DNA of 27,555 bases, from assembly GCA_027038805.1 (NCBI GenBank), contig JALWGO010000233.1:1-27555 (forward strand), written 5' to 3'. Shown here piece after piece: positions 446 through 3,247 of this stretch (positions are counted from its first letter, which is position 1; each line of letters opens with the position of its first letter). The position numbers and the translations under genes are program-made. This stretch comes from Thermoprotei archaeon. GTDB lineage: Archaea; Thermoproteota; Thermoprotei_A; Sulfolobales; WANQ01. The notes under the pieces were generated by a model, which saw only the letters and a program-made list of their open reading frames with translations, was not told the origin of the DNA and searched no databases.

Positions 446-668
446 CCCAACCCAAACCCAGAGATATGACGGAGCCCAAGGATTCCGCCGGACTCGGGGG
501 AGCCTGGAGGGAGAGGCAGCTTGCCCGCGGGGCTGTCTTCTCCTTCTGGGTTCCCCCGAGTTGAATCCTTGGGCTCCGTGGGGCCGGGCGACGGTTGCCA
601 GGGGCCTCGGGCTACCGGCGGGCTCGGGGTTTCCTGGGGCCGTTGTCTGGCCTCGGTTGGGTTGGGGG
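446..668 (+). ncRNA. Candidate highly structured non-coding RNA segment (three-way junction with two long hairpins), family unassigned
   Basis: Closing stem 446-455/657-666. Hairpin 469-579 has a perfect 17-bp base (469-485/563-579) and a ~29-bp inner stem with 5 G:U pairs. Hairpin 582-652 has about 10 G:U pairs. The segment is GC-rich in an AT-rich genome and has no credible ORF. Confidence 0.6.
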
Positions 669-673
669 CCAGT

Positions 674-690
674 CTTCTCTTTTTGTTTGT
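674..690 (+). terminator. Pyrimidine/T-tract, putative archaeal transcription terminator
   Basis: cttctctttttgtttgt lies immediately after the closing stem of the structured region. Confidence 0.45.
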
Positions 691-717
691 CTACAGTTTT
701 CATTGCGTTCTATGTTA

Positions 718-735
718 GAGAAAGTGTTTTTATAT
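718..735 (+). promoter_or_regulatory. Putative BRE/TATA promoter of the MFS gene
   Basis: gagaaagtgTTTTTATAt about 55 nt upstream of ATG 789, with a gtggtg RBS-like motif at ~772-777. Confidence 0.45.
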
Positions 736-788
736 TTGCGTATAGTTATTTTTGTAGTTAGAGTTAGTATTGTGGTGTCTAGTATTTC

Positions 789-2009
789 ATGAGGTACCTT
801 GAAGCCGGTCTTGATAGGAAGTGTGGTGGTAACGTTGGTGTTGTTATCTGTTTGATGGCTTATACTGTTTTTACTGCTTCTTTTTCTCTTTTAGGTATGT
901 TTGTATACCAGTATCTTTTCAGTAGGGTTACTGTTTCGAATGTTACCTTTATGCTTGCATTGTTTTCTGTATTATATATTTTCTCTATGATTATCGCTGG
1001 TGTTTTTATTGACTTGTTTGGGGGAGAGAAATTTATTATGGTTTCTTTTTCCTTGCTGACTTCTTTCTTATTAACTATTACTGCTATATATGTATCCGAT
1101 GGGTTAACCTCTAATACTATTACAGCCTTGCTCGCCTGTACTATTGCCTGGCTTCCCATTGCTTTGGGCTCCTATATTCGTAGCCATATTGATGTTTCAT
1201 GTCGTGGTACCATTTATGGGCTTGGAACTGGTGTTGGTAGTCTGATTGCTTTCGGACTATATAATTTGATTAATGTTTTCCCTCTACGTGTTATTATAGC
1301 ATTAGTGGGTGTTATTATAGCAGCTGCTGGTATAGCCGTATTATTATTAGTTGAGAATGGAATGTGGTTTAAGAGAAGAGTGTTTAAACCATCTCAGCTA
1401 TTTTATCGCCGAGTGCCTTCTCTTAGTTTAGGTATTTTTGTCTTTTATACTATGGCTGGTTTTGTGAGCGTAAAGCTTTACCCAATGCTTGGAGAATTTT
1501 CACTTAGTATTATGGCTTATACCGTAACCGTACCCTACCTGGTATTTGTTATAACTGCTGGTTTCCTCATAGACTTTATTGGTAGAAGACCTATAGGGGT
1601 AACCGGGTTCATTATACTTAGCATTGGCAATACGTTTCTCGCATTATTTGAGGATAGCTCCTCTATACTGTTTTCAACTATTATACCATTGATTATTATT
1701 AGAGTAGCATATAGTTTTATAGACGTCTACTCCGTTGTAACGCTAATAGACTTGGCTGGGAGGAGAAGTAAGGGGATCACAATCGCGATTGGGTTAACGG
1801 CTATGTCCACTGGTATTCTCTTAGGCTCGCTTCTAGCCGGGCTTGTAGAGGCTAGTAGGCTTGGAGTAATCATGGGTACGTTGATATTGATTGCCTCAAT
1901 ATATATCGTTTTGAGAATACCCGAGACGCTGCCTAAGAGGACGGTAAAGAAGGATGAGATATTAAAATATATTGATAAGGCTAAGAAGATCGCTGAGAAA
2001 GAATTGTAA
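789..2009 (+). CDS. MFS-fold multi-pass membrane protein
   Basis: About 12 hydrophobic segments, MFS loop motifs GVFIDLFGGEK and GFLIDFIGRRP, a PETLP motif after the last TM and a charged C-terminal helix. Confidence 0.8.
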   Translation: MRYLEAGLDRKCGGNVGVVICLMAYTVFTASFSLLGMFVYQYLFSRVTVSNVTFMLALFSVLYIFSMIIAGVFIDLFGGEKFIMVSFSLLTSFLLTITAIYVSDGLTSNTITALLACTIAWLPIALGSYIRSHIDVSCRGTIYGLGTGVGSLIAFGLYNLINVFPLRVIIALVGVIIAAAGIAVLLLVENGMWFKRRVFKPSQLFYRRVPSLSLGIFVFYTMAGFVSVKLYPMLGEFSLSIMAYTVTVPYLVFVITAGFLIDFIGRRPIGVTGFIILSIGNTFLALFEDSSSILFSTIIPLIIIRVAYSFIDVYSVVTLIDLAGRRSKGITIAIGLTAMSTGILLGSLLAGLVEASRLGVIMGTLILIASIYIVLRIPETLPKRTVKKDEILKYIDKAKKIAEKEL

Positions 2010-2772
2010 TCCTATCAGCTATACTCTCTATTATCCTTGTAAACGGGTGGTCGGGTCTAGATAACACTAGGTATTCTACGCCATTACTGAGGACTACATC
2101 GTTGTAGTATGGTACTGCTGCTAGTAAGGGTATTTTGAGCTCACTCGATATTTTCTCTCCGAGTTCGATTGCTTGGCTTATGTCTGGTGTTGGAGTCTTA
2201 TTTACCACTAAGTAGGACTTCGTTTTTATCGTATCGTATATCTCCTTTATGAAGGCTAGGGCTCCCTTAATATCAACTCTATCTGGTACAACGACCAGTA
2301 TTATGTTATCGCTTGCTATGAGAGCGTTTATCGAGGAGTAATGTATTCCAGGACTTGTATCAAAGAAAATATAGTCGTATTCTTCTCCCAAGGTCTTTCT
2401 TATGCGTATTAGTTTTTTGAGCGCATTCATCTCCCATCTACGGGACTTTCCTAGGGTCTCCTTTATAGCATCTATATCTGGGTTTGCAAGACTCGCCTTA
2501 AACTTGCCCTTTAATCCAAACTCGTCTGTTAAGTCTATGAGTGTTTCCTCAAAGCCGCACTCGTCTTCGAGGTAGTCATTTATCCAGTATCTTACTGACG
2601 GTTCTCGTAGCATGTAGTAGAGGCTTGGAGCCCTCATGTCAAGGTCTACTAATAGTACATTGTATCCTTTTTTTGCAAGCATTAGGGAGAGGTTTAGTGA
2701 GAGAACACTTTTACCCGAGCCTCCTCGATGTGAGTGAATTGTATATATTGTTGCATTCAAGCAGGTGTACAC
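1981..2772 (-). CDS. MinD/ParA-family P-loop ATPase (likely start TTG at 2760)
   Basis: Deviant Walker A HSHRGGSGKS, VDLD motif, Walker B IFFDTSPG, C-terminal VPYYNDV...E segment. A ggggtg RBS-like motif precedes TTG 2760. Confidence 0.9.
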   Translation of the reverse strand: MYTCLNATIYTIHSHRGGSGKSVLSLNLSLMLAKKGYNVLLVDLDMRAPSLYYMLREPSVRYWINDYLEDECGFEETLIDLTDEFGLKGKFKASLANPDIDAIKETLGKSRRWEMNALKKLIRIRKTLGEEYDYIFFDTSPGIHYSSINALIASDNIILVVVPDRVDIKGALAFIKEIYDTIKTKSYLVVNKTPTPDISQAIELGEKISSELKIPLLAAVPYYNDVVLSNGVEYLVLSRPDHPFTRIIESIADRITILSQRSS

Positions 2773-2821
2773 CCCATTTTACTATTCTATTATGGTGTTA
2801 TAGGATATTATATCTATCCCG

Positions 2822-3247
2822 CTACTCGCGGGGAAAGTAGAAGTACACTTTCCTCCCCTTCCTCTTCTTTGCTATATACCCCATAGCTACTAGCTGGTTC
2901 AGATAAGCGCTTTCAACTGCTCTAGCTCTACCAGTCTCTCTTGAAACCTCTTCTGCTGTTGCCTCTCCTCCAAGTTTAGCTAGCGCTATAGCTGTTCTAC
3001 GCAAGTGATCTGGAAGTGATAGTAGGGTTATTGCATCTAAGTACTCAGTTAGCTGGCTATATGCTTCTGGCGCCTCCGGCATTGCATGCGGTTTTCTTTC
3101 GAGCATGTCTATTATTCTCTCTAATAATGTTATGATGCGATCTAGCTTAGCGTTTAATGCATGGTATATGTCGTCTCGATTCACTATATTCTCTAGATGA
3201 CTTGAACTGTTCCTATTTTTCTCCAAGGTGTGATCAACTCTAGGCAA
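2822..3247 (-). CDS. Winged helix-turn-helix DNA-binding protein with N-terminal coiled coil
   Basis: LSLPDHLRRTA...ATAEEVSRETGRARAVESAYLNQLVAMGYI-KKRKGRKVYF is a wHTH with wing. LNAKLDRIITLLERIIDML is heptad-like. The start is uncertain. Confidence 0.85.
   Translation of the reverse strand: MPRVDHTLEKNRNSSSHLENIVNRDDIYHALNAKLDRIITLLERIIDMLERKPHAMPEAPEAYSQLTEYLDAITLLSLPDHLRRTAIALAKLGGEATAEEVSRETGRARAVESAYLNQLVAMGYIAKKRKGRKVYFYFPRE

Follow-up and report, generated by a model that had tools for sequence, protein, structure and literature searches.

The locus and its setting

What kind of element occupies the GC-rich island at the start of the 27,555-nucleotide stretch analysed here (the window), and whether that element works as RNA, as DNA or as part of a neighbouring messenger, is the question that this locus raises. 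The window is the entire contig C233 of a 1.76-Mb metagenome-assembled genome of 40% GC in 333 contigs (G000; C140, C152 and C296, cited below, are other contigs of this assembly), and the island, which runs from base 1 to about base 690, has a GC content of 57% in 1–500 and 71% in 469–655. The public runs that contain this sequence are DNA metagenomes only, obtained from hydrothermal vents, and related records are labelled Desulfurococcales or Pyrodictiaceae archaeon. Comparative analysis of the sequences indicates that positions 469–670 are probably the two-hairpin 3′ part of an undescribed structured non-coding RNA gene of about 770 bases, carried by a few uncultured hot-vent archaea.

Read along the + strand, the locus begins with a gene for an Hjc-like protein, followed by an A+C-rich spacer, a short segment termed L1, the palindrome, hairpin 1, hairpin 2, the segment R2, a T-rich tract, a TATA-like box and a gene for an MFS transporter. 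The features considered here are the following.

G000:C140:285–767, minus strand, and G001:C226:7331–7924 (L064): upstream Hjc-like gene, unannotated, 170–197 aa
1–399, + strand: inner three quarters of a palindrome of about 546 bp, with arms at 1–93 and 307–399 and a core at 94–306
400–468, + strand: outer right arm of the palindrome, which contains the motif CCCAACCCAAACC at 446–458 and pairs with the left arm in the full-length G001 fold
469–579, + strand: hairpin 1, made of an outer stem, a bulge, an inner stem and an apical loop; 32 of 49 pairs change on both sides among five species
580–654, + strand: hairpin 2, with 33 pairs, 11 of them G:U; 21 of the 33 change on both sides among five species
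655–670, + strand: R2, the 3′ strand of the closing helix, GGTTGGGTTGGGGGCC, whose partner L1 lies outside the window on C140
671–690, + strand: T-rich tract with TTTTT at 678–682, a possible archaeal termination signal
730–741, + strand: TATA-like box of the downstream MFS gene, outside the RNA; the motif is kept in G001 and G003 and marks the next transcription unit
789–2009: MFS gene (MFS_1 match, E 4e-14)

The base composition of the flanks is also skewed, the + strand being strongly A+C-rich to the left of the RNA (L002, 1200–1400) and G+T-rich to its right (window 670–790); read outward from the element, both flanks are thus G+T-rich, and coding explains this only in part.

The two hairpins

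The outer stem of hairpin 1 consists of 17 pairs, all of them Watson–Crick (469–485/563–579), and is separated by a 5-nt bulge, CGCCG (486–490), from an inner stem of 32 pairs, 8 of them G:U (491–522/530–562), which brings the total to 49 pairs below a conserved apical loop, GCCCGCG (523–529). The stem of hairpin 2 (580–613/621–654) is capped by a conserved loop, ACCGGCG (614–620), which includes the complement of the hairpin-1 bulge. A preliminary description of this DNA had located both hairpins within a few positions of these limits (582–652 for hairpin 2), and its limits for hairpin 1 and its 17-bp stem hold, whereas the inner stem, which it gave as about 29 pairs with 5 G:T positions, is longer and contains more G:U pairs. 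Likewise, the richness in G:U pairs is real, but it had been undercounted, at about 15 against the 19 found in both hairpins together and at about 10 against the 11 found in hairpin 2.

The strand asymmetry that had been noticed is also real. On the + strand, the segment 440–690 folds at −172.2 kcal/mol, compared with −118.1 ± 5.0 kcal/mol for dinucleotide shuffles (z −10.9; none of 200 shuffles equals it), while on the − strand it reaches only −118.9 kcal/mol (z −5.4).

Homologues and copy number

Five species from two genera have a homologue at this chromosomal position, and so does a third lineage, which is more distantly related. BLAST matches to the element were restricted to its own genus (G001 and G003; the match in G002 covers the left flank only), and a BLAST search of 400–700 against 325 genomes of the order gave nothing beyond that genus; BLAST is, however, too insensitive for this element, and the second genus (g3) was found only through the gene neighbourhood, in a search of the family with both flanking proteins. 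In the sister species G001 the locus is intact inside a 24-kb contig, and the same arrangement is found in the second genus, uninterrupted in G007 and divided between the ends of two contigs in G005. Proteins homologous to the upstream one pointed in addition to L088, L089, L107 and L109, contigs that all end in the left arm of the palindrome, and to L090, an intact copy on a 267-kb contig from a more distant, GC-richer lineage, whose neighbour protein is 54–59% identical to the proteins of the family. The three closest sequences were used to build a covariance model (R1), which gives 110–118 bits for the second genus and, in 151 genomes sampled from the order, no match beyond genera g1 and g3; it missed the L090 copy even with filters off, and this copy was analysed by folding and by eye.

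Wider searches were negative. An exact-pattern scan of metagenomes with the 19-nt apex of hairpin 1 gave 53 matches, all of them due to chance (DNA of 48–76% GC with no further similarity), a scan of a genome collection with the upstream Hjc-like protein returned only already-known genomes, and the contigs of four DNA runs contained no variants beyond the G001-type strain. Each genome carries one copy, always downstream of the same gene, and three independent genomes (G001, G007 and L090) have the element uninterrupted within a contig. A MITE, a foldback element or an IS-type element was considered and rejected, given the single locus per genome and the same site in three lineages.

Covariation and strand-specific selection

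Standard pairs are formed in 99.3% of the 408 cells of the five-species alignment, and in 53 of the 82 pairs both partners vary; these figures come from an alignment fitted to the model and from six full copies in three related lineages, so that the independent events are far fewer than the cells. When the partner strand is slid by 1–3 columns as a control, the proportion of paired cells falls to 58% or less and the number of doubly changed pairs to 14 or fewer; in 500 shuffles the observed pairing and double change were never attained. An independent MAFFT/RNAalifold run gave 39 pairs changed on both sides. Nearly all stem positions have changed between lineages. The comparison of homologues that the preliminary description had proposed as a check therefore comes out in favour of the fold, with heavy covariation that collapses in the slid controls.

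The same alignment bears on the strand. Hairpins 1 and 2 contain 70 G:U cells and no A·C cell; as an A·C mismatch on one strand corresponds to a G:U pair on the other, this indicates that only the + strand has been kept foldable, as a single strand. The five f1 homologues fold 37–53 kcal/mol better on the + strand, with 14–22 G:U pairs each, and L090 folds 27 kcal/mol better on this strand. The comparison between species thus strongly supports the fold, which appears to have been selected on the + strand as a single strand, in agreement with the RNA-type structural selection proposed earlier, and both compensatory change and strand-specific pairing, which characterize the generic class of stand-alone structured non-coding RNA genes, are found here. 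A 90-aa open reading frame on the minus strand (431–703) was rejected as protein-coding, since all six frames are closed in G007 and G005 and no frame is conserved.

The palindromic stalk

Positions 1–399 form an inverted repeat with 93-nt arms that are 98% complementary. The continuity of the hairpin region with this repeat, which had been suspected from the window alone, is borne out by the overlap with C140 and by the intact locus of G001. Bases 384–468 of the window are 100% identical to bases 6–90 of C140, which then continues as the left flank, and the intact G001 locus explains the repeat as a palindrome of about 546 bp, the reverse-complemented C140 representing its left flank; the second match on C140 is consequently the other side of the same palindrome, and not a second copy. 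Both continuations at position 468 are seen in contigs of four other runs, from three studies.

The outer arms of the stalk are perfectly Watson–Crick in G000, G001 and G007, and the arms are 13–21% diverged between species. Arms that are identical within a genome but diverged between species are the outcome of arm-to-arm gene conversion in DNA, and the perfect complementarity in two genera therefore points to homogenisation at the DNA level, part of the element having been shaped also as DNA. In L090 the arms are imperfect and contain G:U pairs, 17 on the + strand versus 14 on the − strand, and the stalk folds 23 kcal/mol better on the + strand.

The core (94–306) is 89.7% identical to that of G001 (L002, 1591–1800), in reverse orientation. 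As assembled, the G001 core has 8 G:U pairs on the + strand and none on the − strand, and the orientation in the window favours the − strand (−334.7 vs −317.1 kcal/mol). The arms, perfect over about 160–180 bp, are longer than short reads, and the core orientation in this assembly is unreliable; the opposite orientations may reflect either an arbitrary choice of the assembler or a truly invertible segment. Contigs break inside the palindrome at position 1 of the window, at C140:1, at the end of G003:C20, at the ends of G005:C44 and C16, and at the ends of L088, L089, L107 and L109. Most of the short-read assemblies examined break there, and even contigs of 117 kb and 161 kb stop about 270 nt past the upstream gene; as the palindrome breaks such assemblies, the gene is usually split over contig ends and would escape annotation.

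The closing helix and the predicted ends of the unit

R2 pairs with L1 (GGCC-AAA-CCCAACCCACC), which lies to the left of the palindrome on C140. Within the family both strands are constant, with one exception in G007 (G-C in place of an A-U pair), and in L090 both have been rewritten, with CCCAGGAGCCC paired with GGGCUCCUGGG and the complementarity kept. In all lineages the helix contains a 3-nt bulge (AAA or ACA) four pairs from its end. A bulge-helix-bulge or circularisation signal was considered and rejected for this helix, where a single 3-nt bulge is found and not two bulges 4 bp apart. The full-length folds of G001 (−689 kcal/mol on the + strand, −609 on the − strand) and L090 (−637 and −581 kcal/mol, respectively) share the same architecture, in which the closing helix is stacked on the stalk and hairpins 1 and 2 lie between the stalk and the 3′ strand. 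The predicted element thus consists of a closing helix, a giant stalk and two hairpins in a four-way arrangement. The preliminary description had proposed a three-way junction closed by a 10-bp helix (446–455/657–666), which can be drawn in the own genus but competes with better-supported pairings; its motif, CCCAACCCAA, belongs to the palindrome arm and is missing from both the second genus and L090. With 446–468 belonging to the palindrome arm and 655–670 pairing with L1, that junction is probably wrong.

In ten sequences, which represent three lineages, the G-rich start of L1 is preceded at 23–25 nt by a TATA-like box, in the variants TAATATA, AAATATA, AGAAATA and TTAAAT; this is the usual distance between the TATA box and the transcription start in archaea. 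At the other end, R2 is followed by T5 runs in G000 and G001, by weaker T-rich sequence in G003, G007 and G005, and by none in L090, where the downstream gene is different and convergent. From these sequence signals, the most plausible reading of the element is as a transcription unit of its own, about 770 nt long, with predicted ends. The RNA would start to the left of the window at L1 on C140, 23–25 nt downstream of the TATA-like box, and the predicted 5′ end accords with the earlier proposal of a start outside the window; in this genus, the T-rich tract (671–690) is the likely 3′ end. L1 would pair with R2 to close the molecule, and the closing helix would lead into a palindrome rod of about 250 bp (1–468 plus the left arm), hairpin 1 and hairpin 2.

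Search for known RNA families

Searches with Rfam 15 at gathering thresholds gave no match in the whole window, and at E ≤10 on 1–800 the models returned were mostly long hairpins of the miRNA type, far below threshold (the best at 25 bits vs 86), so that no known family is matched at this locus. ARAGORN found no genes, and a tRNA or tmRNA was rejected on this ground. An rRNA operon spacer or processing stem was likewise rejected, as the window contains no rRNA and the element lies between protein genes in G001, G007 and L090. The archaeal SRP RNA (RF01857) of G000 is encoded elsewhere, at C152:2256–2566 (136 bits), and that of G001, G005 and G007 is also found at other loci (range 136–170 bits); the archaeal RNase P RNA (RF00373) of G000 is located at C296:505–837 (173.6 bits). 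That no hallmarks of tRNA, SRP or RNase P had been recognized here earlier agrees with these results.

As a separate observation, G001 has two full-length SRP RNA matches (C244:21372–21682 and C57:3975–4285; 150 and 146 bits, respectively) and no RNase P RNA match despite a completeness of 97%, which suggests that this bin contains strain duplication and gaps.

Neighbouring genes

The upstream protein carries an E...D...ExK motif and a tail rich in Lys, Gln and Thr, and it matches no Pfam family above threshold. Its structural model (pLDDT 86) shows a weak Foldseek likeness (E 1.5e-3 to 1e-2; 20–24% identity to Hjc) to the archaeal Holliday junction resolvase Hjc and to subunits of the crenarchaeal splicing endonuclease. 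The protein occurs in genera g1 and g3 and in every one of the 47 genomes of family f13; its gene often follows a DUF1152 gene. In four inspected Sulfolobaceae-type contexts the next gene follows within about 50–120 nt or overlaps, with no structured element, and in a fifth a gap of about 300 nt follows the gene. A functional pairing of the RNA with the Hjc-like protein is unsupported, since the protein occurs without the element in the four contexts, and the adjacency of gene and element is treated as inherited gene order.

On the other side, a ParA/MinD-type ATPase (AAA_31, E 9e-21) follows a TrmB-like winged-helix protein on the minus strand (window 1981–3247), and the two, which lie 1.2 kb from the RNA, are convergent with the MFS gene.

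Conserved motifs and putative contacts

Three GC-rich motifs persist across lineages, namely CCGCCGG (485–491), CCGCGGGG at the apex of hairpin 1 and CCGGCGG at the apex of hairpin 2. Within the first, CGCCG (486–490) is the unpaired bulge, and the other two overlap their apices. The bulge is the exact reverse complement of CGGCG (616–620) and, in the second genus, the complementarity between bulge and apex reaches 7 nt, which suggests a loop–loop contact; the motifs of the bulge and of the hairpin-2 apex are invariant, so that this pairing is without covariation support. From the junction it is 17 bp to the bulge and 33 bp to the apex of hairpin 2, distances that make an intramolecular contact awkward, and a contact between molecules is at least as plausible as one within a single molecule. 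As a best guess, offered with low confidence, we infer that the RNA may act as a very stable scaffold, with the three conserved motifs serving for contacts; pairing would take place between the bulge and the hairpin-2 apex, inside one molecule or between molecules, and proteins may also bind there.

A bolder and rather unlikely extension is that the RNA is a self-assembling architectural RNA, with rods linked into dimers or higher assemblies, and the archaeal counterpart of multimeric bacterial giant RNAs. In such an assembly, CGGCG at the hairpin-2 apex would bind the CGCCG bulge of hairpin 1 in a different molecule, the hairpin-1 apex would self-pair through its palindromic CCGCGG, and the linked rods of about 250 bp would form assemblies stable near 100 °C. 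If true, a self-assembling RNA would be encoded by a gene whose DNA is a recombining palindrome.

Alternative explanations

The locus could, although this is unlikely, be an element that acts at the DNA level, such as a cruciform, a site of recombination or segregation, a replication structure or a single-stranded DNA site on the + strand. Outer arms that are perfect in G000, G001 and G007 yet differ between species show the concerted evolution of inverted repeats, the core appears inverted between two assemblies, an Hjc-like junction-nuclease fold characterizes the only neighbour that all three lineages share, and the ParA-type ATPase and its winged-helix partner lie 1.2 kb downstream; all of these would suit such an element. 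Nevertheless, a duplex or a cruciform would not favour one strand, as the hairpins do with their 70 G:U cells and no A·C cell, and G:T pairs only weakly stabilise DNA. The conservation of the unpaired loops, the fixed position of the TATA-like box ahead of the structured part, and the L090 stalk, with its excess of G:U pairs and its better folding on the + strand, also argue against a DNA element. Regarding the neighbour, the Hjc-like gene is found in all the f13 genomes, and the four inspected Sulfolobaceae-type contexts have no such element.

It is also improbable that the structure is a cis-acting untranslated region that controls mRNA stability or read-through, whether as 3′ UTR of the upstream Hjc-like gene or as 5′ leader of the downstream MFS gene. 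Such a role would agree with the orientation of both flanking genes, which share the strand of the structure in genera g1 and g3, and with the site directly downstream of the Hjc-like gene, which is kept in all three lineages. However, L1 is separated from the upstream gene by a conserved TATA-like box, a second conserved box, which belongs to the MFS gene, follows the T-tract, and in L090 the gene downstream is a different one, in convergent orientation. In addition, a closed structure of about 770 nt with paired ends is unlike known archaeal leaders, and the upstream gene occurs without the element in the Sulfolobaceae-type contexts inspected.

Finally, a mobile-element remnant, an assembly artefact or a chance, functionless GC-rich fold is highly improbable and, for the hairpins, already refuted: the window starts in the palindrome, where most of the examined short-read assemblies end their contigs, and palindromic ends can be artefacts, but the whole element is intact in G001, G007 and L090, both junctions at 468 recur in the contigs of four runs (three studies), each genome has a single copy at the same conserved site, and compensatory change across species excludes a chance fold, so that doubt remains only over the orientation of 94–306.

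Comparison with known systems

Apart from rRNA, RNase P RNA and SRP RNA, hardly any large structured RNAs are known from archaea, and the literature searched contained no description of an RNA such as the one proposed here. The predicted gene, from uncultured hyperthermophiles, would add an archaeal RNA some 770 nt long that has a well-supported fold, contact loops that are conserved and a rod of about 250 bp.

The 2002 screen of Klein, Misulovin and Eddy reportedly identified GC-rich structural RNA genes in the AT-rich genomes of hyperthermophiles. The element resembles genes of this type in being a single-copy, intergenic GC island with stable helices in an AT-richer genome (57–71% against 40% GC), but none of those RNAs that are held in Rfam matched and, at about 770 nt, it is far larger. 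OLE, GOLLD, ROOL, HEARO and raiA are large orphan non-coding RNAs of bacteria, some of which assemble via loop–loop contacts. These RNAs and the element have in common their length, the presence of several helices, strong covariation, conserved unpaired nucleotides and a narrow distribution, and the complementary loops of the element would allow loop–loop assembly as in some of them; it differs in being archaeal, in having no sequence or structure match to them, and in being dominated by a nearly perfect palindrome rod of about 250 bp. The Alu domain of the archaeal SRP (7S) RNA has two neighbouring hairpins whose loops could touch, and the element is similar to this RNA in its rod-like shape, its paired 5′ and 3′ ends and its two neighbouring hairpins, whereas the order of its helices differs and the locus has no Rfam match.

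Chloroplast inverted repeats and the palindromes of Y chromosomes are kept identical by arm-to-arm gene conversion. The stalk arms, identical within a genome and 13–21% diverged between species, behave like these long DNA palindromes, but here the palindrome lies inside a predicted transcript, and the adjoining hairpins evolve in an RNA-like manner, with G:U pairs on one strand only. RNA-type and DNA-type evolution are found side by side in one element, the hairpins changing through one-strand G:U intermediates and the stalk arms remaining perfectly complementary.
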